A DNA stretch of 64,000 nt, taken from contig CABZLG010000004.1 in NCBI GenBank assembly GCA_902526535.1, forward strand, positions 1,815 through 65,814. Reading direction: 5' to 3'. The notes beneath the pieces were generated by a model, which made no database searches, was not told the origin of the DNA, and saw nothing but the letters and a program-made list of their open reading frames with translations. Position numbers and translations under genes: made by a program. Positions 110 through 18,622 of this stretch are shown here, one piece after another (position 1 is the first letter of the stretch; each line of letters opens with the position of its first letter). Origin of the DNA: an uncultured SAR86 cluster bacterium (GTDB lineage: Bacteria > Pseudomonadota > Gammaproteobacteria > Magnimaribacterales > TMED112).

Positions 110-861
110 TATTGAGCTGACAAACCTCCGTCGATAACAAGTTCTGTGCCTGTAATCATCTTTGATTCATCAGATGCCAGAAATAAAATTCCATTAGCAA
201 CATCTATTGATTCTGCAAATTTTCTTATAGGTATTTGTTTTTCTAACTTTCCCAATAACTCCTCGCTAGCATTTTCAAAAAAAGCTTGCATCATTTCTGT
301 CTTAGCAAATACAGGGTGTATGCTGTTACACCTCACTAGATCAGTTGTTCTTGCGCAATGCAAAGCCACAGACTTTGATAAATGTCTTACACCTGCTTTA
401 GCACTGTTATAAGCAGCAAAATTATGACCAGCAACTATACCAGATATGGAGGAAATATTTATGATCGAGCCATTTCCTGATTTTCTCATTAATGGCAAGG
501 CATATTTACATCCTAAAAATACTGAATCTAAGTCTACTTTATGAACAAGCTCCCAATCTTCCTCACTTGTTGACTCAACATCAGATATAAAACCTATACC
601 AGCATTGTTGACTAAAATATTTAAATTGCCAGCTTTACTTTCAATTCCATTTATAACCTCCTCCCACCTTTTCGAATCAGTTACATCATGCTCAAAAAAA
701 TCTATATCTAATTCCTTAGCTACAGTCTTTCCACGTTCAGAATTTATATCACTTATAAAAATACTTGCGCCATGCTCTTTAAACAAACGAGCTGTTTCTT
801 TACCAAATCCAGAGGCTCCTCCCGTGATAAGTGCTACTTTATCTTTTAATCTCATTTCCAT
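109..861 (-). CDS. short-chain dehydrogenase/reductase (SDR) family oxidoreductase
   Basis: 250-aa ORF with Rossmann motif TGGASGFG, NNAG, and catalytic Y-x3-K (YNSAK). Confidence 0.85.
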   Translation of the reverse strand: MEMRLKDKVALITGGASGFGKETARLFKEHGASIFISDINSERGKTVAKELDIDFFEHDVTDSKRWEEVINGIESKAGNLNILVNNAGIGFISDVESTSEEDWELVHKVDLDSVFLGCKYALPLMRKSGNGSIINISSISGIVAGHNFAAYNSAKAGVRHLSKSVALHCARTTDLVRCNSIHPVFAKTEMMQAFFENASEELLGKLEKQIPIRKFAESIDVANGILFLASDESKMITGTELVIDGGLSAQ

Positions 862-2575: not shown

Positions 2576-4159
2576 ATGTCTAAATTACTTGAAATAAAAA
2601 ACTTGTCTGTAGATTTTAAGTTACGAGAAAATATTTTTAGAGCAGTAGATAATATTTCGTTTGAGATTAATAGAAATCAAACATTAGCGTTAGTTGGCGA
2701 ATCAGGTTCTGGAAAATCTGTAACAGCTATGTCAATTCTAAAACTTCTTCCTTATCCAAAGGCAATGCATCCAAAGAATTCAAAAATAATATTTGAGGGG
2801 AAAAATATTTTAGAATTCGACAACAAAAGCCTAAGGCAAGTAAGGGGGAATATTGTATCAATGATTTTTCAAGAGCCTATGACATCATTAAATCCATTTC
2901 ATCGAGTTGGTGATCAAATTATTGAAGCTATTATCACTCATAGTAAAACCTCTAAAAAGGAGGCAAAGAATAATGCATTTGAATTATTAGATCTTGTTGA
3001 AATCCCCGATCTCTCAAGAAGATTTAAATCTTTTCCTCATGAACTTTCAGGAGGTCAAAGACAAAGAGTTATGATTGCTATGGCTTTAGTAAATAATCCG
3101 AAACTACTTATTGCAGATGAACCTACAACTGCGTTAGATGTAACAATTCAAGCACAAATACTAGACTTAATGTCTAAACTTCAAAAAGAACTTGGTATGT
3201 CAATTCTTTTCATTACTCATGACCTTGGTCTTGTTGATAAATTTTCTGACAAAGTAGCAGTAATGAAGGAGGGAAAGATTGTTGAAATAGGTGAAACAAA
3301 AAGAGTTTTTGCTAATCCTAAAGAGGGATACACTAAACTTCTCCTTGCATCAATTCCAAAAGAAAAAACTAAAATTAAATCAGAACTCAAACCTTTAGTT
3401 GAAATAAATGATCTTGATGTTTTTTATAGAATCGAGTCTCAAAATATTTTTAAAGAAAATTATTTTCATGCAGTAAAAAATGTAAATCTTAAAATAAACA
3501 AAAAAACCACTATTGGTCTTGTTGGAGAGTCAGGTTCGGGCAAATCTACACTTGGAAGGGCTATTGCCAATTTACTTCCTTATAAAGGTTCAGTTATTTT
3601 TGATGGAAAGGAAATTTCATCTATTAAAGATCGAAGCGTCAGAAAAGATATCCAAATTATTTTTCAAGACCCTTATGGATCACTTTCCCCAAGACTTACT
3701 GTAGGAGATATTATCGGAGAAGGTTTAGATATTCATATGAATCTGAGTAAAAAAGAACGAAATGGTTTGATAGAACAAACCATGAGGGAGGTTGAGCTTG
3801 ATCCAAAATATAGATTCAAATATCCACATGAGTTTTCAGGAGGTCAGCGACAAAGAATAGCTATAGCTAGATCAATAATACTTAAACCTAAATTTATTAT
3901 TTTAGATGAGCCAACTTCTGCGCTGGATAGGTCTATTCAGATTCAAATTATTGATTTACTAAAATCACTTCAAGAGAAATACAGTTTGACTTATTTGTTT
4001 ATAAGTCATGATTTGAAAGTAATTAGAGCAATGTCTGACAGGATTCTTGTAATGCAAGACGGCGAAATGATTGAAGAAGGCAATGCCAAATCTATTTTTG
4101 AAAAACCCAAAGAAGAATATACTAGAGAGCTTTTATCTGCAGCAATCAAATATTCTTAA
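2576..4159 (+). CDS. peptide/opine-type ABC transporter ATP-binding protein with two fused ATPase domains (YejF-like)
   Basis: 527 aa with two Walker A motifs (GESGSGKS x2), two LSGGQRQR signatures and two Walker B motifs. Confidence 0.9.
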   Translation: MSKLLEIKNLSVDFKLRENIFRAVDNISFEINRNQTLALVGESGSGKSVTAMSILKLLPYPKAMHPKNSKIIFEGKNILEFDNKSLRQVRGNIVSMIFQEPMTSLNPFHRVGDQIIEAIITHSKTSKKEAKNNAFELLDLVEIPDLSRRFKSFPHELSGGQRQRVMIAMALVNNPKLLIADEPTTALDVTIQAQILDLMSKLQKELGMSILFITHDLGLVDKFSDKVAVMKEGKIVEIGETKRVFANPKEGYTKLLLASIPKEKTKIKSELKPLVEINDLDVFYRIESQNIFKENYFHAVKNVNLKINKKTTIGLVGESGSGKSTLGRAIANLLPYKGSVIFDGKEISSIKDRSVRKDIQIIFQDPYGSLSPRLTVGDIIGEGLDIHMNLSKKERNGLIEQTMREVELDPKYRFKYPHEFSGGQRQRIAIARSIILKPKFIILDEPTSALDRSIQIQIIDLLKSLQEKYSLTYLFISHDLKVIRAMSDRILVMQDGEMIEEGNAKSIFEKPKEEYTRELLSAAIKYS

Positions 4160-4167
4160 TCTGAATC

Positions 4168-5019
4168 CTAATCTGAAGAGGTTTTTGGATCTAAAGCATC
4201 TCTAAGGCCATCACCAAAAAAGTTTAGAGAAAATAATGTCATGGTGAAGGTAATTCCAGGAAAAACTAAAAGCCACCAGTATTCTTCCATAGATTCAACA
4301 CCATATCTTATTAGTGTTCCCCAGCTGCTCATTGGTGGTTGAATCCCTAACCCTAAGAAACTTAAAAAAGCTTCTAGAAGCATTACTTGTGGAATAGTTA
4401 AAGTAGCATAGACTGCAATTGGTCCTAGAACATTTGGGAAAATATGTCTTCTAAACATATAAAAATTTGATACTCCCATTGCTTTTGCTGAGAGAACATA
4501 TTCTTGGTTTTTTATACTCAACACCTGCCCCCTTATTATTCTTGCCATTGTTAACCATTCAACTGCTCCAATAGCACCAAAAAGAAGCCAGATGTTTCTA
4601 CCAAATACAACCATTAATAAAATGATGAAAATTATGAAAGGTAAGCCATATAAAATATCTACTATTCTCATCATTACAGCATCTACTTTCCCTCCGTAGT
4701 AGCCAGAAACAATCCCCCAAGTAACACCTATAACTAAAGCTACAGCTGTTGCTACAAAACCAACCATTAGAGATACTCTAGAACCATAAAGAAGCCTGCT
4801 AAGAAGATCTCTTCCTAAAGTATCAGTACCCAATAAATGTGCGCTTGAAGGAGCTGATGCTCCAAGTTCTAAATTTTGGTAATCATATGTATATGGAGAT
4901 ATAACTGGAGCTAAAATAGCTAAAATAATCAGAGATACAAGAATAAATACCCCAAACATTGCTGCTCTGTTTTTCAAAAGCTTCCTTAAAGCATCAGACC
5001 ATAAAGATGAATTGCTCAT
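4168..5019 (-). CDS. ABC peptide transporter permease (OppC/DppC/YejE-like)
   Basis: 283 aa, polytopic, with a binding-protein-dependent transport EAA-type loop (AKAMGVSNFYMFRRHIFPN). 4-nt overlap with the upstream permease. Confidence 0.85.
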   Translation of the reverse strand: MSNSSLWSDALRKLLKNRAAMFGVFILVSLIILAILAPVISPYTYDYQNLELGASAPSSAHLLGTDTLGRDLLSRLLYGSRVSLMVGFVATAVALVIGVTWGIVSGYYGGKVDAVMMRIVDILYGLPFIIFIILLMVVFGRNIWLLFGAIGAVEWLTMARIIRGQVLSIKNQEYVLSAKAMGVSNFYMFRRHIFPNVLGPIAVYATLTIPQVMLLEAFLSFLGLGIQPPMSSWGTLIRYGVESMEEYWWLLVFPGITFTMTLFSLNFFGDGLRDALDPKTSSD

Positions 5020-5936
5020 GAATCTCTTGCCCTAGGATTCAAAATTAAAACTAATATATCTGAAACTAAATTAAAAAATATAATCATTGCAGAGAAAAAT
5101 ATTGTTGTACCCAATATCATTGTGTAATCTCGATTGAAAGCTGCTTCTACATAAAATTTCCCTAAACCAGGAATTTGGAAAATTGTTTCTACTACAAAAG
5201 AACCAGCTAAAAGACCTGCAATAGCTGGTCCTAAAAAAGATACAACAGGTAAAATGCCGCCCTGCAAAGCATGGTTAATTACAACCTGTCTTTCAGTAAG
5301 TCCTTTAGCTCTTGCTGTTCTAATAAAGTCTTGGCCTAATATTTCTATCATTCCTCCTCTTCCTAATCTGGCAATATATGCTGCATAAGCAGCACCTAAA
5401 GTAATTGAAGGAAGAACCTTGTCTCCAGGGAGGGTATCCCAACCTGATACTGGAAGAAGTTCAAAATTAATTCCAAAAATAAGAACTAAGAAAGGACCTA
5501 ATAGGAACGTAGGCACGCATATTCCAAGCATGGCAACAGCCATTGGAAAATAATCAAGGAAGGTATTTCTTTTTAAAGCAGCAATTGTTCCAGACAAAAG
5601 ACCAATAAAAAGCGCAAATAAAATTGCATAGAAAGCTAACTCAAAAGTCACAGGTAGTCCTGTGGAAATCATTTCAGTTACTGTTCTTCCTGGGTATCTA
5701 AAAGATGGACCAAAATCACCAACCAGTATATTGGAAAAGTAATCAAAGAATTGCTCATATAGAGGTGCATTAAGGTTATAGACTTCATTAAGATTATCAA
5801 TTACTTCTTGGGGAAGTTTTTTTTCTGCATCAAATGGCCCTCCTGGAGCCAGTCTTGTTAGAAAGAAAGTTATACTCGCGACAATTATTAATACTGGAAT
5901 TGCAATTAGAATTCTTCTAAGAATTATTCCAATCAT
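5016..5936 (-). CDS. ABC peptide transporter permease (OppB/DppB/YejB-like)
   Basis: 306 aa, polytopic, with EAA loop TARAKGLTERQVVINHALQ. Confidence 0.85.
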   Translation of the reverse strand: MIGIILRRILIAIPVLIIVASITFFLTRLAPGGPFDAEKKLPQEVIDNLNEVYNLNAPLYEQFFDYFSNILVGDFGPSFRYPGRTVTEMISTGLPVTFELAFYAILFALFIGLLSGTIAALKRNTFLDYFPMAVAMLGICVPTFLLGPFLVLIFGINFELLPVSGWDTLPGDKVLPSITLGAAYAAYIARLGRGGMIEILGQDFIRTARAKGLTERQVVINHALQGGILPVVSFLGPAIAGLLAGSFVVETIFQIPGLGKFYVEAAFNRDYTMILGTTIFFSAMIIFFNLVSDILVLILNPRARDS

Positions 5937-5940
5937 TAAA

Positions 5941-7554
5941 TTAGTCTCTCTCTAAATAAACAAACTTTGGATGATGATGATCAAGAATATTAGCATCCCA
6001 ACCTTTTACATCAGGATGAATTTGAAATTGCTTGACATAGGTATAGATTGGAATGATTGGCATCTCATTAATTAATATTCGCTCTGCCTCCATCAACTTT
6101 TTATATCTATCTTCTTGATCAGAAGTTCTATTAGCCTCTGCAACTAATTTTTCATATTCATAGTTTGTCCAACCTGTTTGATTATTCCCTCTTCCTGGTC
6201 TCATTATTTCAAGAAATGTATTTGGATCTTGATAGTCTCCTATCCATCCAGCTCTTGAAATTTGATAGTCTAAATTATCTTGTCTGCTTAAATAAACTTT
6301 CCAATCAGTATTGTAAATTTCAACATTTATACCTAAATTAACCTTCCACATTTGTTGGATTACTTCAGCTATCTTTCTATGGCCCTCCTGAGTGTTAAAT
6401 AGAATTTCAATTGTTGGAAATCCCTCTCCATTTGGATATCCTGCTTCTGTTAATAATTGTTTAGCCATCTCAGGATTAAATTCAACTACTGTATCAGGGT
6501 AGTATTCTGATGTTCCTGGAGGAGTAAAAGAGTATGCAGTTTTTTGCCCACATTTAGATACTTTTTCAACAATTAATTTCCTGTTAATACCCATTGCTAA
6601 TGCTTTTCTTACTCTCGAATCTGATAAATGAGGCAAAGTCGTATTCACTCTGTAATAATAAGTACCCATATAAGGATCAATTCTTAAGGAAGGGTTTTTA
6701 TTTTCGAGATAAACAGGACATTTCTCTTGTGGCACTACATTTGTGACGTGTAGAGCACCTGCCCTAAACATTCTATCTTCTGTAGATTCATTTTGAATTG
6801 GGTAGTAATGAATTTCATTTAGTTTAACTCTATTTGCATCCCAGTAAAATTCATTTTTCTCTACAACAATCTTTTTATTTAGCTCCCAACTTTTTAACTT
6901 CATTGGACCATTACAAACATGATTTCCAGGCCTTGTCCATTTCATACTCCTATCATCCATTTCACCAAATTTCAAAACCGTTTCTTTATGTACTGGCCAT
7001 GTCGAGTAATGAGCAAGTAGACCTACAAAAAATGGTGTTTGGTTTTCAAGTTCGACTTCGAGTTTGTAATCTGAAATTGCTTTCACACCAACTTCAGAAA
7101 AGTCACTAATTTCGCCATCATAAAATTCTTTTGCATTTTTCACATAAAAAAGCATTTCTGAATATTGTGATCCAAGTGTTGGAGTTAATGCTCTTTGCCA
7201 AGACCAAACAAAATCTTCAGGTGTGACGCGATCTCCATTTGACCATCTAGCATTTGGATTGAAATTAAAAACATATGTTTTTTGATCTTCTTTGAGAGTC
7301 CAACTTTCTGCAACCCCAGGCAGGTTATCTCTTCCACCTTTAGGATCAGTTATTGTAAGGCCCTCACAAACACCAATTAAAATATGATGTTCCGGTACAC
7401 CTGTAACAATATGTGGGTCAATACCTTGTGGTTCACTACCGTTTCCCCAATGTAAAATTTGACTTTCAAGTCCCTCTTCAACTGGAGTTTTTCCGCTTGA
7501 GCAACTTACTATTATGAATATGGATAATATAGAGATGAAATTTTTCATAAACAA
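5941..7554 (-). CDS. ABC transporter substrate-binding lipoprotein, family 5 (peptide/oligopeptide)
   Basis: 537 aa. The signal peptide has a lipobox (IIVSC). The length and sequence are typical of OppA/DppA/YejA-type binding proteins. It heads the permease genes. Confidence 0.8.
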   Translation of the reverse strand: MFMKNFISILSIFIIVSCSSGKTPVEEGLESQILHWGNGSEPQGIDPHIVTGVPEHHILIGVCEGLTITDPKGGRDNLPGVAESWTLKEDQKTYVFNFNPNARWSNGDRVTPEDFVWSWQRALTPTLGSQYSEMLFYVKNAKEFYDGEISDFSEVGVKAISDYKLEVELENQTPFFVGLLAHYSTWPVHKETVLKFGEMDDRSMKWTRPGNHVCNGPMKLKSWELNKKIVVEKNEFYWDANRVKLNEIHYYPIQNESTEDRMFRAGALHVTNVVPQEKCPVYLENKNPSLRIDPYMGTYYYRVNTTLPHLSDSRVRKALAMGINRKLIVEKVSKCGQKTAYSFTPPGTSEYYPDTVVEFNPEMAKQLLTEAGYPNGEGFPTIEILFNTQEGHRKIAEVIQQMWKVNLGINVEIYNTDWKVYLSRQDNLDYQISRAGWIGDYQDPNTFLEIMRPGRGNNQTGWTNYEYEKLVAEANRTSDQEDRYKKLMEAERILINEMPIIPIYTYVKQFQIHPDVKGWDANILDHHHPKFVYLERD

Positions 7555-7579: not shown

Positions 7580-7984
7580 TCAATCTACGAAATGCTTTTC
7601 TTTTTCTTCGTTTATTGATTTTACTTCTGCACAAAATTCCGCTGTTGGCCTAGAAATAAGTCTCTCCAAGCCTATAGGATCACCAGTCTCTAAACAGTAG
7701 CCATAATCACCAGCTTTTATTCTAAGAAGGGCTTTATCGATTTTAGGCAGAAGTTTAGACTCACGTTCAACTATTCTGAGAAATAACATAGAATCTATTT
7801 CATGTTGTGCACGATCCACTTCATCGCTGCAAGCAGGCGGATTACTAAGTCTATCTTTAGCGTCTTTTATATGTTTTAAAGTCTCTTTTTTAAGTTCGTT
7901 AAGCTGACTTTTGAAAAAGGACAACTGTTCTTTATCCATATAATTTTTCTTAGCAGCTCTTAAAATTTTTTCTTTTGTAAGCAT
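7580..7984 (-). CDS. dksA: DksA-family RNA polymerase-binding transcription factor, two-Cys (zinc-independent type) variant
   Basis: 134 aa with a coiled-coil N-terminal half carrying acidic tip residues (DEVDRA). The C-terminal motif is YGYCLETGDPIGLERLISRPTAEFCAEV, i.e. CxxT-x17-CxxV instead of CxxC-x17-CxxC. Confidence 0.8.
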   Translation of the reverse strand: MLTKEKILRAAKKNYMDKEQLSFFKSQLNELKKETLKHIKDAKDRLSNPPACSDEVDRAQHEIDSMLFLRIVERESKLLPKIDKALLRIKAGDYGYCLETGDPIGLERLISRPTAEFCAEVKSINEEKEKHFVD

Positions 7985-8042: not shown

Positions 8043-9284
8043 TTACTTAGATTTCACAACACTGACACTTTTAGAAATACCGAAACCAAGATACATAAGA
8101 TAAATTCCAAGAGGGACAATGGCTAGTGGAGCTATATAGGCAACCATCCCTAAAGAAAACAACATATTAAAAAGCAGACCTCCTGAGGCATCACCAAATC
8201 TATTAGTGAATGTATCAATGAAAACTGTAGATTTATATTTTTCTTTTGAATTAAGTGTGGTGTAGACAGCTTCACGAGCTGGTTTATTTAACGCATACTC
8301 AAATGGTCGCATCACTCCTTGCAAGATTAGAAAAATAAGTACCCCAGAAGATGCCAATAAGTAATCAGATAAATATCCTGAAACAGCGAGGAAAGCCAAA
8401 GAAAATATCAAACCATAGATAGTAAGGACAAATTTTATCCCAAGAAAATTGGATCTAAGAATTAAAGCGGTAAGAAATACTTGAACGAATAAAGTGATTA
8501 AAGGAACAATTGAGTCTGCTCTTCCAAATATCCTAGTTTTTTCAGCTGAATCGTTTGTGTAGTTGTTGATAATTTCAAGTTGAAAAAACCAAAGTGCTGT
8601 TGATAGACACGTCCAAACGAACGCGTAAATAACAAACTGCCTGATCAAAGGATTCGTTCTTATTTGTGAAAACTGCTCAAGTGTGCTCGATAGAGTATTA
8701 TCTCCTGATGTGTTTAAAACAATCTCCTCTCTTTGAACACGAGATGAAAAGAAAATTGCAAGTAATAAGGACGAAACTGCTATTAGGAGGGAAAGATTCT
8801 CCTTATCGTAAAGAAACCCATCAACTAAAGCACCTCCGCACGAAGCACCTAAAGAGCCAAATCCACTAATAATTCCAAAGAATTTTTTTCCATCTTCAAT
8901 ATCAAAAGAGTTAACAGTCATTGCCCAAAAAATAGCTACTACAAAAAAATTAAATACGTTGTACCAAACATAGAAAAATGTTTTAACAGCAAGAATTTCT
9001 GGAAAATAGTTATAAGTTAAGAAGAAACCACACAAACATAAAATAAAGAAACCATAAATAGATGGCACAAGTTTTGTAAGACGAACTTTAGAAACTATCA
9101 ATGAATAAATTGGGTTTACTAGCAACATAACAATAACAATTATTAGCAAATAAAATGGCAGATCACTAGTTCCAATATTAGCTGCTATTGTGTTTCTAAA
9201 TGGTCTTAGCACGAATAATGAAAAAAGAACGAAAAAGAAAAATAAACCCGAGAAAATAGTGTTCTTAGAAAAAAATGAAGTCAT
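8043..9284 (-). CDS. MFS-type transporter resembling the ATP:ADP antiporter (TLC/Npt1-Npt2) family
   Basis: About 12 TM helices. The N-terminal pattern FVLRPFRNTIAANIG...LPFYLL resembles the TLC/Npt-like family, judged from memory rather than a search. The start is set at the ATG at 9284; the ORF-track start at 9317 is a TTG that overlaps phoA. Confidence 0.5.
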   Translation of the reverse strand: MTSFFSKNTIFSGLFFFFVLFSLFVLRPFRNTIAANIGTSDLPFYLLIIVIVMLLVNPIYSLIVSKVRLTKLVPSIYGFFILCLCGFFLTYNYFPEILAVKTFFYVWYNVFNFFVVAIFWAMTVNSFDIEDGKKFFGIISGFGSLGASCGGALVDGFLYDKENLSLLIAVSSLLLAIFFSSRVQREEIVLNTSGDNTLSSTLEQFSQIRTNPLIRQFVIYAFVWTCLSTALWFFQLEIINNYTNDSAEKTRIFGRADSIVPLITLFVQVFLTALILRSNFLGIKFVLTIYGLIFSLAFLAVSGYLSDYLLASSGVLIFLILQGVMRPFEYALNKPAREAVYTTLNSKEKYKSTVFIDTFTNRFGDASGGLLFNMLFSLGMVAYIAPLAIVPLGIYLMYLGFGISKSVSVVKSK

Positions 9285-9294
9285 TATGAAATGC

Positions 9295-10548
9295 CTATTT
9301 GCACTGATAGTCCTCAAGATTATCTAACCCTAATGCCTTTTTTATTGCAAAAAATACATCTGTATTATCCATTACACCAGAGAAGTTTTCTGCTCCCGGC
9401 CCTTGGGCAAATACCGGAATCATAATTCCAGTATGAGTACCCCTACCTATGGCTGTATTCCATGAAATTTTCATTTTTCCTGTCTCCCTATAGCGTGCAT
9501 CATCTTGTTCAATAAGAAGCCCTCCCGTTTCATGATCTGCTGTGACTATTACAAGAGTATCATTATTTTCTTTAGCAAAATTGAGAGCTTTCTCGACTGT
9601 TTTTTCAAATTCCTGCATTTCTTTTAAATAATATTCGTAATCATTATCATGTGATGCCCAATCTATCTTTGAACCCTCAGCCATTATAAAAAATCCTTTA
9701 CATCCGTCTTCAAGCATCCTTTTAGATTCTTTAATAGAAAAATCTAACATTTCTAATAAATTTGGTTCAAATTCTGTTCTTTCTAAATCATCTTCAGCAA
9801 ACAAACCAAATATTCTTTTTCTATCAATGTAATTAAAATTGTCTATGTCTTTTTTTGTTTCAAGATAATGGAAATTCTTTTTTATTTTTTTAACAAAATT
9901 TATCCCGTCCTCTCTTGTCCCTCCTTCCTCAATTGGAAGAAAATAGTCTGTCCCACCGCCAAGTACTATATGATTTTTTGAGTTGTAAATATGTTCGGCT
10001 ATCTCTTCTTTTTTATATCTTGAACTTACATGAGAGGCAAAGGCTGCTGGTGTTGCATGAGTAATTTCTGAAGTAGAAATTATTGTATTTACAAAGCCCT
10101 TTATAAATAGCATTTCAGTTATATTTTTAATGGGTTTTTTATTGTGATCCACACCTACATATCTATTTATAGTTTTGATACCCGTACTGAATGCTGTCGC
10201 AGAAGCGGCTGAGTCTGTAACCAAAGAATTATAAGCATGAGTTTTTACGAATCCTGAAAAATCAAATTTATCAAAAGATAGCTTATGGTTAGGTCCTCCA
10301 AGAATATTCCTATAAACTGAAATATGTGTTGGCCCCATTCCATCACCTATAAGTAAGATTATATTTCTAGCTTTAACGTCAACCTGTTTCAATTCTTTTG
10401 GATTTATATCTTTTTTAAAATCTATAGGAAGTATTTTTTTATCTTTTTCAGGCACCTCTATCAATAAGGGCGCATATTCATTAATTATCAAAAAAGTAAT
10501 TATTGATGAAATAATAGCTACCAAAAGATACTTAAAAAAATTATTCAT
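9295..10548 (-). CDS. phoA: alkaline phosphatase, PhoA family (Zn2/Mg enzyme), membrane-anchored or secreted
   Basis: 417 aa with an N-terminal hydrophobic anchor. Metal and active-site motifs are GDGMG, TDSAASATAF (nucleophilic Ser), VTADHETGG and GTHTG. Confidence 0.9.
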   Translation of the reverse strand: MNNFFKYLLVAIISSIITFLIINEYAPLLIEVPEKDKKILPIDFKKDINPKELKQVDVKARNIILLIGDGMGPTHISVYRNILGGPNHKLSFDKFDFSGFVKTHAYNSLVTDSAASATAFSTGIKTINRYVGVDHNKKPIKNITEMLFIKGFVNTIISTSEITHATPAAFASHVSSRYKKEEIAEHIYNSKNHIVLGGGTDYFLPIEEGGTREDGINFVKKIKKNFHYLETKKDIDNFNYIDRKRIFGLFAEDDLERTEFEPNLLEMLDFSIKESKRMLEDGCKGFFIMAEGSKIDWASHDNDYEYYLKEMQEFEKTVEKALNFAKENNDTLVIVTADHETGGLLIEQDDARYRETGKMKISWNTAIGRGTHTGIMIPVFAQGPGAENFSGVMDNTDVFFAIKKALGLDNLEDYQCK

Positions 10549-11368
10549 TTTTTAAATCTAAAGCATCAAGCTTTTGCTTTATTTGATCGTTTTCAGATTG
10601 TTCATAATCAAAATCAATCACAGAACCTTCCCAGTCGCCATACGTTGGATTTGCAATCATAAACCATACAAAACCCCAGAAGGAGTCTGTTTGCTCTACT
10701 ATAGAATTTCGAAATTTAGATGATTTCTTATTTTGTTGACCATCGATAAAATCTCCAAGATTATCTCCAATTATTTGTAGGATTCTGTAATTTTCTGCAA
10801 TAAGAGCTACTCGCGAGGATTTATTTCTATCCCATGATGGTTTCTCATATCTAGTTAAGATTTGATCTATATCATCTGATAAATCAAACCCTTCTTTAAC
10901 AAGATTATTTCTTGTGGCTGGTTCTAATTCATTGAGTCTATTTGTTACAAAAAAGATTTCAACGCCAAGTTCTTTTGCTGTTTTCATGTAGGATAAAGCT
11001 CCTGGTAAAAAAGTGGCTTTCTCTTCTTTTACCCACTCTATCCACCCATCTGGATAATTAGTATTATTTACTATTAAACGAGCTTGATATGCACTGTTAC
11101 TAAAGACCGTTTCATCAATATCCAGAATGATTGCAGGTGGCTTATCAAAAAAATTCTTCTCTCCGTTCATTTGATCAATTGAGGCTGAAATTTCCTTTTG
11201 TTTCAGAAGAAATGGAATTGTAGCTTCGGCAGTTTTAAAAGTTGTTCTAATGTGAGCTTTATACTCTGCAGATTCTTGTATATAAAGAGTTGCCATTAGA
11301 GATTCATGTTCCCTATCGTCAGCCAGAGAAATAAAACTTAATAGCAGAAGAGCTAATAAATTTTTCAT
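10541..11368 (-). CDS. secreted HAD-superfamily class B acid phosphatase / 5'-nucleotidase of the e(P4) family
   Basis: 275 aa with a signal peptide. DDDD-type motifs are ILDIDETVFSN, FFVTNR and IGDNLGDF. 8-nt overlap with the phoA start. Confidence 0.8.
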   Translation of the reverse strand: MKNLLALLLLSFISLADDREHESLMATLYIQESAEYKAHIRTTFKTAEATIPFLLKQKEISASIDQMNGEKNFFDKPPAIILDIDETVFSNSAYQARLIVNNTNYPDGWIEWVKEEKATFLPGALSYMKTAKELGVEIFFVTNRLNELEPATRNNLVKEGFDLSDDIDQILTRYEKPSWDRNKSSRVALIAENYRILQIIGDNLGDFIDGQQNKKSSKFRNSIVEQTDSFWGFVWFMIANPTYGDWEGSVIDFDYEQSENDQIKQKLDALDLKNE

Positions 11369-11410
11369 TGGTAAATAATATACTATTTTGTTGTTACAAA
11401 AATGTGAAAA

Positions 11411-13984
11411 TTAATTGTCGAATATTAGTTGAAAATTCACCCTTATCATTCTTCCTCTTGGATCATGTAAGCGTGAGTCCCAACTAAAATCTGGTGCATT
11501 GTATAGTCTTGGAGCCTTTTCATCGAAAAGATTTATTATTCCAATAGAAGTCTTTAAATCATAATCACCAGAATTATTATTAATTTGTAGATATTGTGAA
11601 ATTGGTAGTTCTAATGAAATGTCAAAAATTAAACTTGAATCAACTTTATTTTTATAGCCAAGTGATAAAGCTTTAGATGAAATTGTTCGGTTATTTATGT
11701 ATCCATCTAGATACCTTGCAATTAGCGAATACTTTGATTTATTTTTTTTGAAATTTATAAAAGTATTTATTCTATTTTTTGGCAATGAATGAGTATGTGC
11801 ATCAAAATTATGCTTGCCAACACGGTTAATCATAGTGATGCCATTTTCATTCTGCTCTGGTGTTAAAAATTCAATCAAGTTTGTTCCTTGTAGAATGAGT
11901 TCAATTTCGCCATTAAAAAAGTTCTTAACTGTACTTAATCCATAATCGATGCCACTTAGAACTGTTGATTCTTCGTTAAAATAAGTTGTTGTGACACCTA
12001 TTAAATCTCCTAATTCATTTCTTGTTATTGATGGGCCAAAAGGATCTTCGCTTAATAAAGCTTGGGCACTTTGTCCTTCAATCCTATTTTCAAAGTCTAT
12101 TTCCCAATAATCAAAACTAATTCTATTTCCATTATTACCATAAATTAAACCAAGATTAGTATTTGTTGATTCTGCTGGTTTAAGATCTGCATTACCTATT
12201 TGTGCCTGTCTTACAAAAACTGAACTTTCAATATCTCTTACACTGCCCAATTTAATATCACTTGAAAACATTTGTCCCATAGAAGGCATAGTAAAAGAAG
12301 TGCCAGATGAAATTCTGAAAGAAAAATTTTCAAAAAACTTATATTTAAAAGATAACTTTGGGTCGAAGGAAGAGAAATTTTCAGATTTTTCAAACCTCCC
12401 AGAAAAACGATAATCAAAATTTGGAAGGAATGAGCTATCTAATTCGAAATATAAAGAATACTTATTGCGACTCTCATTTACATTTTTTCCTCCTCCAAGG
12501 AAAAATAGATCTGCTGTTTTAATAATCTTGCCATCTGAGTCAAATTCAGCTCGTGAGATTTCATTAAAGTCTATATCTAAGTTTTCCACACTAGCTTGAG
12601 TTCCAAAAGCTAGATTTATATTTCCATATGAAGTTTGGGTAAGAATATCAAAAGTTGTGAGATCACCGATTTTGTCTGATATCTCTGCGCCTTTAATATG
12701 CTCTACAAGTTCGATTGAGTTTTGAGATGGATCAAAAATATTCCATTGTAAATCTCCTGATTCACCTCCATTTCCATAGAGTGCTGATAAAAATCTAGAA
12801 TCTACAATATCAGGTCTATTATGAAAGTTTTCGTGCTGACTATTAGTGACGGAAGTTTCTAAACTAAAATTTTCAAAATCTATAAGAAAACTGTAATTAA
12901 AATGATATTGAGAAATATCTTTTGGAGATTCTCTCCAAGGATACCTGCCCCCTAATGGCCTTCCATACCATCTTACAGGAACATTGAAGGGACTACCTCC
13001 TACTCCTGGCTCAATATCTCTAGCAAGAAATGGAAGTGCAGGATACGATGGGGATTGAGGATTATCGTTTACCTTTACATTCGAAAAAATTAATGAAAAA
13101 TCGTGATTTCTATTACTTAATCTTGTGTAGAACTTTTCGTGTGACTCATCATTTACAATATTAAAACCCCTTCCATAAGCAAAACGACAACGTCCATCTA
13201 ATATTCCTCCATTTTCGATGCAATTTGGATCAGGAATTGTTTGACCATTTGAATATTCACCAGCATACAATCCACTTTCAATTACGTCATCACCTAAAAT
13301 TTTAAAAGAGTTACCTAAACCACTCACGCTCAATTCTGAAATTTGATCAATTTCATAGGCTTTAAGTGGGGTTCTTTCCATTCTTTCAAAACTAAACACC
13401 AAATTAAAATTCTCAAAATCTTTTCCATAAAGAAAACCAAAACCAATGTCATTTTGGTTGTAATTTGTAGAGTATTGGCTATCTAAATCTAATTTATAGC
13501 CGCTAAATTTTTTTACAGTTATAAAATTTATAACTCCTGCAACAGCATCAGAACCATATATCGAAGTAGCTCCCTCTTTAAGAACTTCCATTTTTGTAAG
13601 AGCAATTTTTGGAATAATATTTGCATCTACATAGCCCTCTCCGTTGTATGAAGGAGTGCCAGTAAATGTTTGTCTCTTTGAATTTATAAGAAGCAATGTA
13701 GAAGCATGATCAAGACCTCTGAGAGTAATAGCGGACATTCCCTGATCTACTCCATCCATTGTATTTGTTTGAAAATGTGAACCAGAGGATGCAGATAAAT
13801 ATTTACTTATTTCAGCAATAGTTGAAACACCAATTTCATCGAATTTCTCTGCTGTAATTATTTCTACAGGGGAGAACTTTGATTTAGATTCTTTAAGAAG
13901 AGTGCCAGTAGTGATAACCTCCTCTATTTCCTCATTTGAGAAAATAGAAAAGGATATCAATATTAGCAGGAATAATTTGATCAT
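11411..13984 (-). CDS. TonB-dependent outer-membrane receptor
   Basis: 857 aa with a signal peptide and plug-domain motifs (EEVITTG..., VLKEGATSIYGSDAVAGVINFIT). The C-terminal part is long and rich in beta-strands. Confidence 0.85.
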   Translation of the reverse strand: MIKLFLLILISFSIFSNEEIEEVITTGTLLKESKSKFSPVEIITAEKFDEIGVSTIAEISKYLSASSGSHFQTNTMDGVDQGMSAITLRGLDHASTLLLINSKRQTFTGTPSYNGEGYVDANIIPKIALTKMEVLKEGATSIYGSDAVAGVINFITVKKFSGYKLDLDSQYSTNYNQNDIGFGFLYGKDFENFNLVFSFERMERTPLKAYEIDQISELSVSGLGNSFKILGDDVIESGLYAGEYSNGQTIPDPNCIENGGILDGRCRFAYGRGFNIVNDESHEKFYTRLSNRNHDFSLIFSNVKVNDNPQSPSYPALPFLARDIEPGVGGSPFNVPVRWYGRPLGGRYPWRESPKDISQYHFNYSFLIDFENFSLETSVTNSQHENFHNRPDIVDSRFLSALYGNGGESGDLQWNIFDPSQNSIELVEHIKGAEISDKIGDLTTFDILTQTSYGNINLAFGTQASVENLDIDFNEISRAEFDSDGKIIKTADLFFLGGGKNVNESRNKYSLYFELDSSFLPNFDYRFSGRFEKSENFSSFDPKLSFKYKFFENFSFRISSGTSFTMPSMGQMFSSDIKLGSVRDIESSVFVRQAQIGNADLKPAESTNTNLGLIYGNNGNRISFDYWEIDFENRIEGQSAQALLSEDPFGPSITRNELGDLIGVTTTYFNEESTVLSGIDYGLSTVKNFFNGEIELILQGTNLIEFLTPEQNENGITMINRVGKHNFDAHTHSLPKNRINTFINFKKNKSKYSLIARYLDGYINNRTISSKALSLGYKNKVDSSLIFDISLELPISQYLQINNNSGDYDLKTSIGIINLFDEKAPRLYNAPDFSWDSRLHDPRGRMIRVNFQLIFDN

Positions 13985-14027
13985 TAATTCCTAATATATG
14001 GACGAGTTTTAATAACCCATCAATATA

Positions 14028-16301
14028 TTAGAAATTTAATTTCAACCTAACTCCTACGTTCCTTCCTGGTAAAGGAACTTCGTTTTTAACAAAAGACGTA
14101 TGGTTTCTTGCTACCTCATCAAGAATGTTATTAGCAAAAACAGAAACTGATATTTCTGAACCAGCTGCGAAATCAAATGTTTTCATTGCTTTCAAATCTA
14201 ACATTCGAAACCCACTTGTAACTGTTTCGTCTTTACCTATGTCATCTTGTTTCCCGACATCTTTGAGAGTAACTTTCAATTCATAAGCATCATTATTTGC
14301 ATACTTTACAGAATAGATATTTCTAGCCGGCACTACTCTTGATACTTTTGTACCATCAGCGAATTTTCCATTCACTGCGTCTCTTCCAAAACTTAAATCT
14401 AAATAACCATTTGCAAGATCAATTTTTCTTCCAAATTGGAATTCATATCCGTTAAATTTTGCATCTTTCTGCATGTATTCTGCTCTTTGAAGTCCACCAT
14501 GATCATCGTGTTCGTCTTCATGTTCATCTTCATCATGACCGTCTTCATCATGATCATCTTCATCATGATGTTCTTCCACATCTTGAAGATATAAGAATTT
14601 ATTTATATCATTCCTAAAGACTGCCATCGATCCATAATAATCACCATTTCTATAATCAAAAGTAACATCAATATTATTTGAATTTTCAACATCTAGATCT
14701 GGATCACCAACTTCAAATCTTCCTCTCGCTAAGTGAGGTCCATTCATGAAAAGTTCCATGGCACCAGGCGCTCTAGCAACAGACGCAAAATTAATACTTG
14801 CTCCAAGATTATCAGTGAATTCTCTACCTAGACTGAATGAATAACTATATTCATTAAAATCAAGATCATAGTAGTCAATCTCTTCTTCATGCTCTTCTTC
14901 TTCACCATGATCATCTTCCTCATGATGTTCCTCCTCATGATGAATAATGCCGCCTTCTCTATTTATTTTGTCAAATCTAAATCCAAATTTAACGTCATAA
15001 ACATCGAAGTTTGTACCAGTGTAATAACCTAGCATAAACATTTCAGATGTCACTGGAGCCATATGTGCTTCTGATCCAACAACAGCCATATCGCTATTAA
15101 TTGAAGACATCATTAGCTTTCTTGAAACTACATCATTCCCAAAATCGAAAACTGTAGAAAACTCAGTTGCATCATTTAGAAAACTTGTAGGTCCTCCATG
15201 GCCACCATGTTCATCATGCTCTTCCTCATCCTCATGTTCATCATGGTCTTCTTCCATCTCCATATGTTGCTCGGTATGGATATAATCAGTATCTCTAAAA
15301 TTGAACATAATTTTTTTCAAGACTTCACCTTTAACCATGTAGGCACCCTGAATATCAAAAGCTTCTGAATTTGTTGATGAAAAAATTCGTTCTTCTCCAT
15401 GCTCATCATGATCGTCTTCATCACCGTGCTCATCTCCATGTTCATCACCGTGCGCTCCGGGTGGTTCAACGTGGTATGGAAGTCCAAAAAGGCTTTCTTG
15501 ATCTCTGAAACCAACACCAAAGTACCCCCAGTCACCTGTTTTAGAGATACCAATCCTTTGAGCAGTTTTTGCAGCATCAGAATTTGCTAGAAAACTTGTT
15601 TCTTCATCTTCATGATGATCTTCCTCATGGTCTTCATCATGGTCTTCATCTTCATGATGTTCTTCCTCCATATGAATTACAGCTCCATCAGGAATGTCGT
15701 AATTGCCAAAACTTGAATCCTTGAAAGCAAGACTTACATTAAATCCAGCAATATTATTCTTGTAAGAGAAACTCTGTGAATCTCCTTCACTTACGCTTTG
15801 TGTTTCAAGTCCAAGGTTAATTTCCTGTTCATTAAAATCCTTCTTAGCTATTAAATCATCAACAATATTAATAATTCCTCCAACAGTACCTTTTGCATAA
15901 AGCAAAGATGAGGGTCCTCTTACTATCTCAACTTGTTTAATATCATTAAAGTCAATTTCATTAGTATGGTCACCGCCCATTCCAGATACATCCTGAACTA
16001 CAAAACCATTGTTAAGAATCTTTACCCTTGTGCCTGTCATACCTCTTATTACAGGTCTACCGACAGCAGCTCCGTAATCTTGAGATGAGACTCCCAGAAG
16101 ATCATCTAAAGTTTCACCAAGACTTTGTGTAGCAGAACTGTCGATATCATCACCTTCAACAACGTGTAAAGGATCTTCTATATCTGCTAAAGCTGAAGAT
16201 GTAAGTGATGAAGTAACAACTACTTCTTCTACGTCTTCTTGTGCATGTAAGCTATTTACTATAAAAACACTCATTAAAAGTGTAAAAAAATAATTTTTCA
16301 T
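14028..16301 (-). CDS. TonB-dependent outer-membrane receptor with five His/Asp/Glu-rich insertions (ZnuD-like metal receptor candidate)
   Basis: 757 aa with a signal peptide (..SLHA) and plug motifs (EEVVVTSS, IEIVRGPSSLLYAKGTVGGIINIV). The terminal barrel strand ends in F (VRLKLNF). Five tracts of the type HEDEDHDEDHEEDHHEDEE are present. Confidence 0.85.
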   Translation of the reverse strand: MKNYFFTLLMSVFIVNSLHAQEDVEEVVVTSSLTSSALADIEDPLHVVEGDDIDSSATQSLGETLDDLLGVSSQDYGAAVGRPVIRGMTGTRVKILNNGFVVQDVSGMGGDHTNEIDFNDIKQVEIVRGPSSLLYAKGTVGGIINIVDDLIAKKDFNEQEINLGLETQSVSEGDSQSFSYKNNIAGFNVSLAFKDSSFGNYDIPDGAVIHMEEEHHEDEDHDEDHEEDHHEDEETSFLANSDAAKTAQRIGISKTGDWGYFGVGFRDQESLFGLPYHVEPPGAHGDEHGDEHGDEDDHDEHGEERIFSSTNSEAFDIQGAYMVKGEVLKKIMFNFRDTDYIHTEQHMEMEEDHDEHEDEEEHDEHGGHGGPTSFLNDATEFSTVFDFGNDVVSRKLMMSSINSDMAVVGSEAHMAPVTSEMFMLGYYTGTNFDVYDVKFGFRFDKINREGGIIHHEEEHHEEDDHGEEEEHEEEIDYYDLDFNEYSYSFSLGREFTDNLGASINFASVARAPGAMELFMNGPHLARGRFEVGDPDLDVENSNNIDVTFDYRNGDYYGSMAVFRNDINKFLYLQDVEEHHDEDDHDEDGHDEDEHEDEHDDHGGLQRAEYMQKDAKFNGYEFQFGRKIDLANGYLDLSFGRDAVNGKFADGTKVSRVVPARNIYSVKYANNDAYELKVTLKDVGKQDDIGKDETVTSGFRMLDLKAMKTFDFAAGSEISVSVFANNILDEVARNHTSFVKNEVPLPGRNVGVRLKLNF

Positions 16302-16343
16302 TTTACCTCCTTTAAAAAATTAAAATTTAAATAATTGGGATCT

Positions 16344-16613
16344 TTATTTTTGTGGTGGGGCTCTTGTAAGAAAGTTATTGAAATCGATAGCTAGAAGATA
16401 TTCTCCAAGATCAAGTTCAATAAAATAAAGTTTAGTGATTAATTTTTCTACTTCAACAGAAGCGGTAGCCTCAATTTCGGTATGACAAACATAACACTCA
16501 ACTTCTTCATGATGATCAATATAATCATCTGCATGGCTAAGTGAGTCAAATGTAATGGTTGCTACAAAAATCATTGCAGCTAATGATATGAATGAAAAAC
16601 TCTTCTTAGACAT
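16344..16613 (-). CDS. small exported protein with His-rich segment and CXXCH motif, unknown function
   Basis: 89 aa with an N-terminal signal/anchor, followed by HADDYIDHHEEVECYVCH. It lies 42 nt upstream of the His-rich TonB-dependent receptor on the same strand. Confidence 0.5.
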   Translation of the reverse strand: MSKKSFSFISLAAMIFVATITFDSLSHADDYIDHHEEVECYVCHTEIEATASVEVEKLITKLYFIELDLGEYLLAIDFNNFLTRAPPQK

Positions 16614-16662
16614 ATCGAAATAGTATCTTATTATTCAAAAATTAAAAGTGTTTGAGTAAAAA

Positions 16663-16739
<77 letters not shown>

Positions 16740-16798
16740 GAGGAAAGACATTATATGGTTTTTGATCGTATTTAGGTAGAGTAAAATAATTTAATCTC

Positions 16799-18622
16799 AT
16801 GAATCTTAAATTTGGTTTGATAGCACTATTAATTTCATCTTTTCTTGCTTCTATTGTGCAGTTCAATTTTGGTAAAACAGAAATTACGCTGGAGAAACTA
16901 GATACAGGCAAAGGCCAATATATTTATTACGATCTATATAAACCTAAGATAGCCTCTGAGAAGAATAAAGTCCCCTTCATAGCTATTATTCCTGGCTTCC
17001 AAAGATCGAAAGAAGCACTTTCTAACATCGCAATAGAGCTTTCTCGAAGAGGTTATGTTGTGGGTTTAATAGATCCATATGCGCAAGGACTTTCAAGTTC
17101 TTCAAGGAGTAGGATTGCAGCAACAACACAAGGCTATGGTATGTTCGCTTTAATAGAACATGTGAATGAAAGCTCTGACTTTAATTTCATCAATAAAGAA
17201 CTTTTAGGCTCAACTGGACACTCTATGGGAGGGAATGCAGCAATTAGAGGTGCAAATTATTTTGGAAAGAAAGCAGACGAACAAAATAAGAAGAGTCTTC
17301 TGCATTCTGTTTACGTTTCCGGCTATGTTTTAACACTTCGAGATGATGTCCTAAAAGATGTTAGATCAAATGTGGGGGTCAGTTACGCATTGTACGATGA
17401 GGGCTCATTTAGGAATGAGTTAAAAAATTGGGATGCGGCAAATATGAAAATCGCTCCAGAATCTTTACGGACAGTTAACAGCGGTTTAAAGAAGGAAGAG
17501 CATATTTCTGAAGTTGAATTAGGGAAATATTATGGTGACTTGGAGTCAAATACACTCAGAGTAATTTTTAATGAAGAATTACTTCATCCATTTCAACCCT
17601 ACAATGCGGAAGCAACTGCTAACCAATTAGCTTATTTTGAGAATGTATTTGGTGCCCCAATAAAACTCGATACATATGATCAAATCTGGCAATGGAAAGA
17701 GTTCTTTACTTTATTAAATATGATTATTTCCTTTTGGCTTTTAATTCCCTTAACAAGAACACTATTAAAAATTAATTTCTTTAAGACACTGGTTAAACCT
17801 ATACCTGAAGCTTTACCAGTTCAAAATAGAGTAGGAAAAACTATATTTTGGTCAGTCTTTTTTATTAGTGCTGCAATAGCATGTGTAACTTTTATTCCTC
17901 TTGTTGAAGTAGCAAAAATACTATTTCCAGAAGCTGCCACAAGACAACTTACTTGGTTTTTTCCACAAAGAATGAATAACTCAGTTATGCTCTGGGCGCT
18001 CTTGAACGGCTCAATTGGAATATTGCTTTTCTTTTTTTCATACTATTTTTTTGGAAAGAAACATGGAGTAAAAATTAATTCATGGGGCTTAGAGCTCTCT
18101 TTCAAGGACATATACAAAACCATCTTACTGGGTTTAATTATTTTTATTGTGTATTTCTCTTTACTCTTTTTAATTTACTTCTTGTTTCACATTGATTATA
18201 GATTTTGGTTTATGGGTGTAAGGATTTTTCAACCTGAAATGCTTTTAGTCTTAGCAATTTACTTCCCTTTCTTTTTTGTCTTTTTCTTTTCAAATTCTTT
18301 AAGAGTAAATGGTGGTATGAGATTTAAAAATCAGCCCGAATGGCTATCAAGGTTAATTGCAGGATTTGCTAATTCTGGCGGATTAATTTTAATAATAGTT
18401 ATTCAATATATTACTTATGGTTTTACAGGTGAAGTTTTTTGGACTACAAATTGGCTAAGTGTGAATTTATTATTTGGTATCGTTCCGATAATGTTTATTT
18501 TGCCTTATTTCAATAGGATCTTTTTTTACATGACTGGTAGATCTTTGCTTGGCCCTATAGTTACGTGTCTAATTTTTATAATGATCCTCTCAACAAATAC
18601 GGTGGTGTATTTACCAATTTAA
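16799..18622 (+). CDS. fusion protein: N-terminal alpha/beta-hydrolase domain plus C-terminal polytopic membrane domain, unknown function
   Basis: 607 aa with an N-terminal signal/anchor and a GHSMGG nucleophile elbow at about aa 140-150. The C-terminal ~300 aa contain about 8-9 hydrophobic helices with no motif I recognise. Confidence 0.6.
   Translation: MNLKFGLIALLISSFLASIVQFNFGKTEITLEKLDTGKGQYIYYDLYKPKIASEKNKVPFIAIIPGFQRSKEALSNIAIELSRRGYVVGLIDPYAQGLSSSSRSRIAATTQGYGMFALIEHVNESSDFNFINKELLGSTGHSMGGNAAIRGANYFGKKADEQNKKSLLHSVYVSGYVLTLRDDVLKDVRSNVGVSYALYDEGSFRNELKNWDAANMKIAPESLRTVNSGLKKEEHISEVELGKYYGDLESNTLRVIFNEELLHPFQPYNAEATANQLAYFENVFGAPIKLDTYDQIWQWKEFFTLLNMIISFWLLIPLTRTLLKINFFKTLVKPIPEALPVQNRVGKTIFWSVFFISAAIACVTFIPLVEVAKILFPEAATRQLTWFFPQRMNNSVMLWALLNGSIGILLFFFSYYFFGKKHGVKINSWGLELSFKDIYKTILLGLIIFIVYFSLLFLIYFLFHIDYRFWFMGVRIFQPEMLLVLAIYFPFFFVFFFSNSLRVNGGMRFKNQPEWLSRLIAGFANSGGLILIIVIQYITYGFTGEVFWTTNWLSVNLLFGIVPIMFILPYFNRIFFYMTGRSLLGPIVTCLIFIMILSTNTVVYLPI

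Follow-up and report, generated by a model that had tools for sequence, protein, structure and literature searches.

Few heterotrophs of the surface ocean match SAR86 and SAR92 in abundance; in these waters zinc, cobalt, cadmium and copper occur at picomolar to nanomolar concentrations and are mostly bound to organic ligands, and to our knowledge the route by which such metals cross the outer membrane of streamlined cells is essentially unknown. A stretch of 64,000 nucleotides from an uncultured SAR86 cluster bacterium (assembly GCA_902526535.1, contig CABZLG010000004.1, positions 1,815 to 65,814; hereafter the window) raises this question in a particular form: what is imported by a TonB-dependent receptor (TBDR) that carries five separate tracts of histidine, aspartate and glutamate, and how is its synthesis switched? 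An earlier note made from the sequence had reported a 757-residue receptor with five such tracts; all five of the peptides that it quoted were recovered in the open reading frame (ORF) at 14028..16301 and its tract coordinates agreed within 0-4 nt, its description of the tracts as evenly spaced holding only approximately, with the tracts occupying loops 2, 3, 4, 6 and 8. The sequence comparisons described below point to a locus encoding a ZnuD-like importer of a labile divalent metal cation, with zinc the likeliest, gated by a metal-sensing arrest peptide that would be read from a small ORF directly upstream (the uORF), a proposal that we rate at about an even chance.

The receptor and its histidine- and acid-rich loops

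Assignment of the protein to the TBDR superfamily was based on matches to the Pfam families Plug (PF07715; E 2.9e-19, 70 bits against a cutoff of 23.9) and TonB_dep_Rec_b-barrel (PF00593; E 4.6e-18, 66.7 bits against a cutoff of 27), together with a TonB box, 22 predicted strands and an aromatic C-terminal residue, which is Phe as read from the sequence. The top NCBIfam match, and the strongest at full length, was ZnuD (NF038289, 205.1 bits). ZnuD was also the top match in PDB, both by sequence (E 3e-34 with the single protein and 2e-55 with a 68-sequence profile) and in a Foldseek fold search with the AlphaFold model (E 7e-35, TM-score 0.7-0.87), where it was placed ahead of PhuR and OprC and where the haem receptors PhuR, ChuA and ShuA were among the matches. 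The second NCBIfam family was TonB-hemin (TIGR01785; 98.9 bits, below its cutoff of 316.85), and matches confined to the plug were obtained with the OprC/NosA copper model TIGR01778 (32.2 bits against a cutoff of 472) and with the BtuB cobalamin models TIGR01779 and NF007926 (61.8 and 56.7 bits against cutoffs of 599.7 and 836). The receptor contains no Cys at all and therefore no Cys/Met copper site of the OprC type. On these comparisons it is best regarded as a new subfamily and an extreme variant of the ZnuD-like metal receptors, and not as a ZnuD equivalog. Homologues characterised for a substrate other than a metal were not found, and among characterised proteins the zinc receptor ZnuD is nearest in both sequence and fold.

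By a sliding-window criterion, the tracts account for 138 of the 757 residues and contain 31 of the 39 His along with 77 Asp and Glu. No other frame among the 79 long reading frames of the window bears a tract, and when the receptor's own residues were shuffled 2000 times a maximum of three tracts was obtained, five never being reached. An AlphaFold2 model built on a 68-sequence alignment (mean predicted local distance difference test score (pLDDT) 70, predicted template modelling score 0.75) displays 22 strands between residues 160 and 756, with periplasmic turns that are all 2-7 residues long. The five tracts form the low-confidence (pLDDT<50) links b3-b4, b5-b6, b7-b8, b11-b12 and b15-b16 of this model, and since strand 1 rises from the periplasm in the standard TBDR topology, these links are predicted to be extracellular; in L2, for instance, pLDDT falls below 50 at residues 201-240, flanked by strands 187-199 and 243-256. 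In the model, all five tracts are accordingly placed in disordered extracellular loops (L2, L3, L4, L6 and L8) and none in a periplasmic turn or the plug, in line with the surface position that had been suggested for them. Of the other loops, L5 has four residues and L7 holds H523 within a FRAP/NPNL-like segment, as judged from model and sequence. Invariant His residues stand at the bases of L2 (H210), L3 (H277), L4 (H346) and L8 (H601), invariance here and below being judged in the 68-sequence alignment, and tract 3 is preceded by the motif E344-Q-H346-x-E348, whose E344, H346 and E348 do not vary and whose Q345 hardly does. The interval 14001-16000 has the most negative plus-strand GC skew of the window (-0.283) and a GC content of 0.36 against ~0.32, because the coding strand of the tracts is rich in GAA, GAT and CAT.

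The tracts are conserved well beyond this genome. Among the 120 best database homologues, which are full length (715-783 residues) and 44-91% identical to the receptor, 118 have five tracts at matching positions; the closest genome at the locus is that of SAR86 MED-G79, at 91% identity. A pattern scan of 185,579 species-representative genomes yielded 399 stretches encoding a relative, from SAR86, Porticoccaceae/SAR92/HTCC2207, Woeseia and the alphaproteobacterial PS1 and OCS116, and the cassette of uORF and receptor is abundant in marine metagenomes, several sequence clusters holding hundreds of members. Tract composition is maintained despite sequence drift (~20% His, 55-60% Asp+Glu, 0.65% Lys+Arg), and 83% of the His-His gaps in the tracts are of 3-5 residues. 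In pairwise comparison with three relatives (91%, 80% and 50% identity), 32 of 34 indel columns fell inside tracts, whose DNA contains imperfect tandem repeats of 12 to 30 nt. Because indels and repeats fall in the tracts while count and composition are kept, tract length appears to evolve by slippage, with number, position and chemistry under selection. The earlier note had named random variation in tract number as a point that would count against its reading; the 118 homologues show no such randomness, although tract length does drift. A count of five is nevertheless not unique: of 126 distant cluster representatives, 30 have no tract, 30 have one, 35 have two, 21 have three, 8 have four and 2 have five, so that three or four tracts occur in 29 of the 126 and five loops mark the upper end of a continuum among ZnuD-like receptors and not a separate invention.

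The buried zinc ligands of ZnuD are Asp99, His100, Glu340 and His499 (PMC4557270). When the 14-residue offset of the PDB chain is allowed for, three of these four match invariant residues of the receptor, namely D111 and H112 at the plug apex and H523 (14733-14735) in L7, the last of which aligns with His499. The invariant His below tract 2, H277, matches His241 in cluster 1 of ZnuD loop 3, and loop 3 bears a His/Asp/Glu cluster in both proteins, tract 2 being that of the receptor. The two clusters of ZnuD loop 3 bind Cd/Zn in crystals and have been likened to a 'fishing net' (PMC4557270). ZnuD of Neisseria meningitidis (PDB 4RDR, 4RDT and 4RVW) further shares with the receptor the 22-strand TonB-dependent barrel, the plug Asp-His and loop-7 His ligands and the FRAP/NPNL-like boxes, the L7 motif here reading ARAP...H523...DPDL. 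However, ZnuD has two short clusters in a single loop whereas the receptor has tracts of 20-30 residues in five loops, ~138 residues in all, and ZnuD is under Zur control in pathogens that face nutritional immunity whereas the host of the receptor is a free-living marine bacterium and no Zur box was found in the searches described below. The tracts also resemble the ZnuA-type His-rich loop, a disordered His and acidic stretch of 12-50 residues that binds zinc with an affinity in the micromolar range and has been proposed to supply a high-affinity site (PMC4542158), although ZnuA is periplasmic and soluble with one loop, whereas the receptor would present five loops on an outer-membrane barrel facing seawater.

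Table 1. Positions of the receptor, its tracts and putative ligands, the upstream leader and the spacer between them (coordinates of the window)
Feature	Residues	Position	Strand	Remarks
TonB-dependent receptor gene		14028..16301	(-)	757 aa ORF; Pfam, NCBIfam, PDB sequence and fold matches
Receptor, signal peptide	1-20			
Receptor, TonB box VEEVVVTSS	24-32			
Receptor, plug	40-143			
Plug-apex D111-H112	111-112	15966..15971	(-)	Invariant; align with ZnuD zinc ligands Asp99-His100
Receptor, barrel	160-757			
Tract 1, HMEEEHHEDEDHDEDHEEDHHEDEE	210-234	15600..15674	(-)	Predicted extracellular loop L2; invariant H210 at base
Tract 2, HGDEHGDEHGDEDDHDEHGEE	284-304	15390..15452	(-)	Predicted loop L3; invariant H277 at base
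Tract 3, HMEMEEDHDEHEDEEEHDEHGGHGG	346-370	15192..15266	(-)	Predicted loop L4
Tract 4, HHEEEHHEEDDHGEEEEHEEE	454-474	14880..14942	(-)	Predicted loop L6
Loop L7 segment, ARAPGAMELFMNGPHLARGRFEVGDPDL	509-536	14694..14777	(-)	Resembles FRAP/NPNL boxes of haem receptors
Tract 5, EEHHDEDDHDEDGHDEDEHEDEHDDHGG	576-603	14493..14576	(-)	Predicted loop L8; invariant H601 at end; DNA with imperfect 15- and 30-nt tandem repeats
uORF		16344..16613	(-)	89 aa; probable CruR-like arrest-peptide leader; ends 42 nt before receptor ATG
uORF, hydrophobic export segment	3-26			
uORF, putative His-rich sensor, HADDYIDHHEEVECYVCH	27-44	16482-16535		Followed by 40-residue linker
uORF, RAPP	84-87	16353-16364		Followed by QK-stop
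Spacer, uORF stop to receptor ATG		16302..16343	(-)	42 nt; Shine-Dalgarno AGGAGG at 16306-16311

The probable upstream leader and the receptor Shine-Dalgarno sequence

The peptide encoded by the uORF is predicted by AlphaFold to form a helix at residues 3-26 only, the remainder being disordered. A similar ORF of 81-113 residues occupies the same place at homologous loci whose neighbours are otherwise unrelated: a hidden Markov model of the uORF matched 69 of 85 loci, with a single match in each, which in every case immediately precedes the receptor, and a motif search identified a small ORF ending in RAPP or RGPP, directly upstream and on the same strand, in 76 of 86. The peptides display a hydrophobic 15-mer (median hydropathy 2.27; at least 1.6 in 67 of 73), a putative sensor segment with a median of three His and seven Asp/Glu that ends in E-C-x-x-C, and a linker with a median of zero His. 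CxxC is present in 63 of the 76 loci, always 40-43 residues from RAPP (or RGPP), and in the remaining 13, mostly Porticoccaceae, the first Cys stands alone after an HxHxDH stretch. The tail after RAPP is two residues long in 52 loci and three in 16 (68 of 76 together), and most often 40-46 nt separate the uORF from the receptor ATG.

R-G-P-P, which has been reported as the strongest arrest motif, replaces R-A-P-P in one large subfamily of the leaders (proteins P0272-P0310), and these peptides carry runs such as HDHHKHHDH just before CxxC, mirroring the chemistry of the receptor loops. Porticoccaceae leaders with a single Cys (usually C-S-V-S) after HxHxDH were found at the loci L011, L016, L019, L025, L032, L034, L040, L041, L043, L045 and L055; eight of these 11 (L011, L025, L032, L034, L040, L041, L043 and L045) have an extra Cys three residues before RAPP, and the receptors of the single-Cys loci have a weak or atypical Shine-Dalgarno (SD) sequence, e.g. 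AGGAAC. The family DUF2946 (PF11162; gathering threshold 23.7 bits) was matched neither by the window peptide nor by most members of the leader family, in which the best score was 18.2 bits (E 0.004) and the other weak match had an E value of 0.11, both in Porticoccaceae variants. The leaders are captured by neither Pfam nor NCBIfam, and all 94 of their database clusters are unnamed and domain-free. The leader and receptor cassette was also observed in genomes labelled alphaproteobacterial (PS1, OCS116, Rhodobiaceae and Hyphomicrobiales; loci L033, L042, L054, L062, L068, L070, L078 and L082), which implies either that the cassette has moved horizontally from one pelagic lineage to another or that the single-cell assemblies are contaminated.

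In the CruR system, an exported leader senses copper through CXXC; the ribosome is arrested at RAPP, which lies 45 residues further on and three residues from the end, and the TonB receptor BfrG, encoded next, is thereby controlled (PMC9426467). RAPP/RGPP uORFs are enriched upstream of TonB receptors, and in the arrested ribosome the P and A sites are occupied by the codons of the two prolines (PMC12992588). Like CruR of Bordetella pertussis (DUF2946, Bp2923), the uORF encodes a small exported leader with CXXC, a fixed spacing to RAPP and two to three residues before the stop; each is the first gene before a TBDR, and both peptides are predicted to be disordered. In contrast, CruR has 145 residues against 89 for the uORF and a CxxC-to-RAPP distance of 45 residues against 40-43, and the uORF family has a His/acid-rich stretch before CxxC, includes variants with RGPP or a single Cys and is not followed by a PepSY gene. 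The spacer of CruR, which acts through Rho, is 162 nt long, whereas that of the uORF is ~40 nt, and this short gap points to translational control by SD sequestration and not to Rho-dependent termination. By analogy with CruR, the uORF is probably a metal-sensing arrest-peptide leader that switches the receptor.

To examine the spacer at the level of RNA, the region from 60 nt before the Arg codon through the receptor start was folded across the loci. The receptor SD was predicted to be paired with a median probability of 0.82, its commonest partner being the Ala-Pro-Pro arrest codons, and this predicted pairing exceeded that of other genes of the same loci (median 0.83-0.89 against 0.49-0.71; Mann-Whitney p 3e-4 and 5e-8), in a comparison over loci that are phylogenetically non-independent. 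SD and arrest codons covary in register: GCUCC arrest codons accompany a GGAGU SD in 11 of 11 loci against 6 of 35 with GGAGG (Fisher 9e-7), and of the 35 loci with a GGAGG SD, 19 have CCUCC, compared with 7 of the 37 others (p 0.003). Leader peptides differ greatly in sequence among the loci with GGAGU. Support for a hairpin mechanism is only moderate at the level of the family. Such a switch would resemble SecM-secA, in which a ribosome stalled on an exported arrest peptide is likewise proposed to open an mRNA hairpin that masks the downstream SD; however, SecM is released by the pulling of the Sec machinery, whereas the uORF peptide is proposed to be released by metal binding, with the arrest codons themselves apparently serving as the anti-SD.

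Proposed mechanism and competing explanations

We propose that the five disordered loops, with ~30 His placed every 3-5 residues among ~77 Asp/Glu and almost no Lys/Arg, act as a low-affinity, high-capacity 'fishing net' over the mouth of the barrel. Ions would pass via the loop-base His residues (H210, H277, H346 and H601) to a buried site made up of D111 and H112 at the plug apex and H523 of loop 7, from which plug movement driven by TonB would free them into the periplasm. On the side of synthesis, the nascent chain of the uORF would stall the ribosome on RAPP, and the stalled ribosome would cover the Ala-Pro-Pro codons that otherwise pair with the receptor SD, allowing the receptor to be translated. 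Metal bound to the His-rich/CxxC segment of the nascent chain would relieve the arrest, termination would follow two to three codons later, the hairpin would re-form and receptor synthesis would fall. The crown of extracellular metal-chelating loops on a ZnuD-type receptor that the earlier note had put forward is supported by the modelled position of the tracts, by the nearest characterised relative and by the conservation of tract number, and we infer that these loops bind metal.

On the sequence evidence, zinc is most likely the substrate, with copper the main rival. Zinc is favoured by the relationship to ZnuD, by the retention of the Asp-His/His site, by tracts that are chemically like ZnuD loop 3 and the ZnuA loop, and by the lack of Cys or of a Cys/Met copper site; the uORF sensor, being His/carboxylate-rich and sometimes without the second Cys, would likewise fit a tetrahedral zinc site better than one for Cu(I).

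A number of observations weigh against a zinc importer gated in this way. The receptor does not reach the curated ZnuD cutoff of 950 bits and is only ~20% identical to ZnuD, and no counterpart of Glu340 was placed, the HMMER profile-versus-PDB search leaving the central barrel unaligned; E344, H346 and E348 (invariant, at the top of strand 7) are mere candidates for its position. In seawater, Mg and Ca would largely occupy the tract carboxylates. CruR, the characterised relative of the arrest peptide, senses copper rather than zinc. The hairpin of the window itself (GCC CCA CCA) has an energy of -5.5 kcal/mol and a z-score of -0.03, like that of shuffles, a synonymous-codon test gave only a weak signal of anti-SD selection on the RAPP codons (median p 0.36, below 0.1 in 12 of 72 loci), and the shared ancestry of the loci bears on the SD pairing statistics. 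The Zur core pattern was unmatched in the window, and upstream of 73 uORFs the best matches to the Zur and Fur consensus were no better than in random segments. No znuABC, PepSY, cop or other metal genes were seen to be conserved by the cassette at ~83 loci, and a search of the literature on this marine receptor family returned nothing specific.

Copper was missing from the metals listed in the earlier note and has become a serious contender owing to the CruR-like uORF. The cassette would then be a marine version of CruR-BfrG, its leader CxxC sensing copper and its His-rich loops capturing Cu(II) for cuproenzymes. The uORF is laid out like CruR, with an export signal, a CXXC at a set distance from a C-terminal RAPP, and a TonB receptor as the next gene. 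Copper is the main rival since it is the metal sensed by the one characterised relative of the leader and the metal to which most DUF2946-headed operons are linked; two of the Porticoccaceae variants show the weak DUF2946 matches given above. OprC, which like the receptor as proposed is a TonB receptor for a free metal ion and has relatives headed by DUF2946 uORFs, is among the next-best fold matches, and His binds Cu(II) strongly as a matter of general chemistry. However, the copper site of OprC is Cys-Met-His-Met, whereas the receptor has neither Cys nor this Cys/Met/His site and scores 32 against 472 bits with TIGR01778; ZnuD is clearly its top match; PepSY, CopC, YcnI and PCuAC partner genes were not found at the loci; and a His/acid-rich sensor whose second Cys is lost in Porticoccaceae leads away from a Cu(I) site. 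We consider the copper reading rather unlikely on this balance. A receptor for cobalt, nickel, cadmium, manganese or Fe(II), or a broad scavenger of whichever borderline metal is available, seems improbable to us. Tracts of His, Asp and Glu are chemically promiscuous, and loops of the Hpn, HypB, UreE and ZnuA type bind Ni, Co and Zn; public pipelines label relatives as 'iron complex outermembrane receptor protein', though this label is generic. Against such a substrate, no genes for nickel, cobalt or iron utilisation and no Fur box were found with the cassette, the conserved D-H/H site is that of zinc in ZnuD, and the cobalamin models match the plug only.

Two further explanations were considered. 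In one, the tracts are tolerated low-complexity expansions, or an anionic surface shield (e.g. against phage or grazers), and the real substrate is unrelated to them. The imperfect repeats, the concentration of indels in the tracts and the range of zero to five tracts across the superfamily fit this, but five tracts at fixed loops are kept at ~50% identity over several orders, their composition and His periodicity are held while the sequence drifts, the uORF sensor has the same chemistry, and His would be nitrogen-costly for a streamlined genome. We regard this explanation as very improbable, and in its purely neutral form it is contradicted by the conservation pattern of the sequences. In the other, haem iron would be gripped by the His of the plug together with that of loop 7, which stands between FRAP/NPNL-like boxes, in the manner of HasR, ShuA and PhuR, with the His-rich loops binding haem or haemoproteins. 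The TonB-hemin model is indeed the second NCBIfam family, PhuR, ChuA and ShuA are fold matches and L7 has the ARAP...H...DPDL pattern, but the TonB-hemin score lies under its cutoff, no haem utilisation genes are adjacent, and we know of no CxxC/RAPP leader of the metal type in a haem system. ZnuD itself has the same two His and the same haem-receptor motifs and yet does not bind haem (PMC4557270). Haem is the least probable of the substrates considered, with hardly any chance of being the right one.

Surroundings and meaning of the cassette

When 982 flanking ORFs from ~83 loci were clustered, the sole neighbour recurring everywhere was the uORF. Other recurring neighbours were a second TBDR (28 loci) and the housekeeping genes for RNase II/R, LpxC, SpoU, MsrA, an amidohydrolase and an alcohol dehydrogenase. 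An Rfam scan of 13900-17000 returned only a tRNA and no riboswitch or known leader, a promoter and terminator scan gave matches that did not exceed shuffles in frequency, and a plasmid search gave two weak matches of uninformative context. The tRNA is a stand-alone tRNA-Ile(GAT) at 16663-16739 (-), 49 nt upstream of the leader ORF and on the same strand. Cassette and tRNA may share a transcript, or the cassette may use a very short promoter region, where no convincing promoter was found.

In the window, a second TBDR of 857 residues without His/acid tracts (11411-13984, -) starts 44 nt downstream of the tract-bearing receptor, and is followed at 8043-11368 (-) by genes for a HAD acid phosphatase, a PhoA-type alkaline phosphatase, which is a zinc enzyme, and an MFS transporter. 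The region 8043-13984 looks like an organophosphate-scavenging cluster adjoining the putative zinc importer. A DksA gene with a C4 zinc finger lies at 7580-7984. Beyond it, an Opp/Dpp/Nik-type ABC system comprises an SBP_bac_5 binding protein, a pair of permeases and, encoded on the other strand, a fused double ATPase (4168-7554, -, and 2576-4159, +); this ABC family includes nickel and metallophore importers. On the other side of the cassette, a divergent gene at 16799-18622 (+) encodes a 607-residue protein of unusual architecture, in which an N-terminal alpha/beta-hydrolase is fused to a polytopic membrane domain of ~300 residues; its Pfam match is PETase-like (E 4.5e-07, 30 bits against 28, just over the cutoff), and it also has a weak NCBIfam match to BHET-hydrolase.

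The coupling of the receptor to a CruR-like leader that had not been listed adds to the interest of the locus, as does the near-universal presence of the cassette in very abundant ocean bacteria, the SAR86/SAR92 clades. With this peptide, the recently recognised RAPP/CruR class gains a family absent from Pfam. If zinc or copper is what the receptor imports, its gene would be a marker for metal limitation in metatranscriptomes, and the protein would show that natural transporters can bear multivalent, disordered loops for capture. A wider proposal, which we hold tentatively and would not yet back on balance, is that SAR86, SAR92, PS1 and OCS116 share a transcription-factor-free module in which a His-rich/CxxC leader stalls on RAPP or RGPP, the arrest codons are the anti-SD, and a five-loop receptor harvests free Zn2+ (or another cation) at picomolar levels. 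If this were true, the leader would be the first zinc-sensing arrest peptide, and the receptor a major way, so far unrecognised, by which zinc enters marine heterotrophs.

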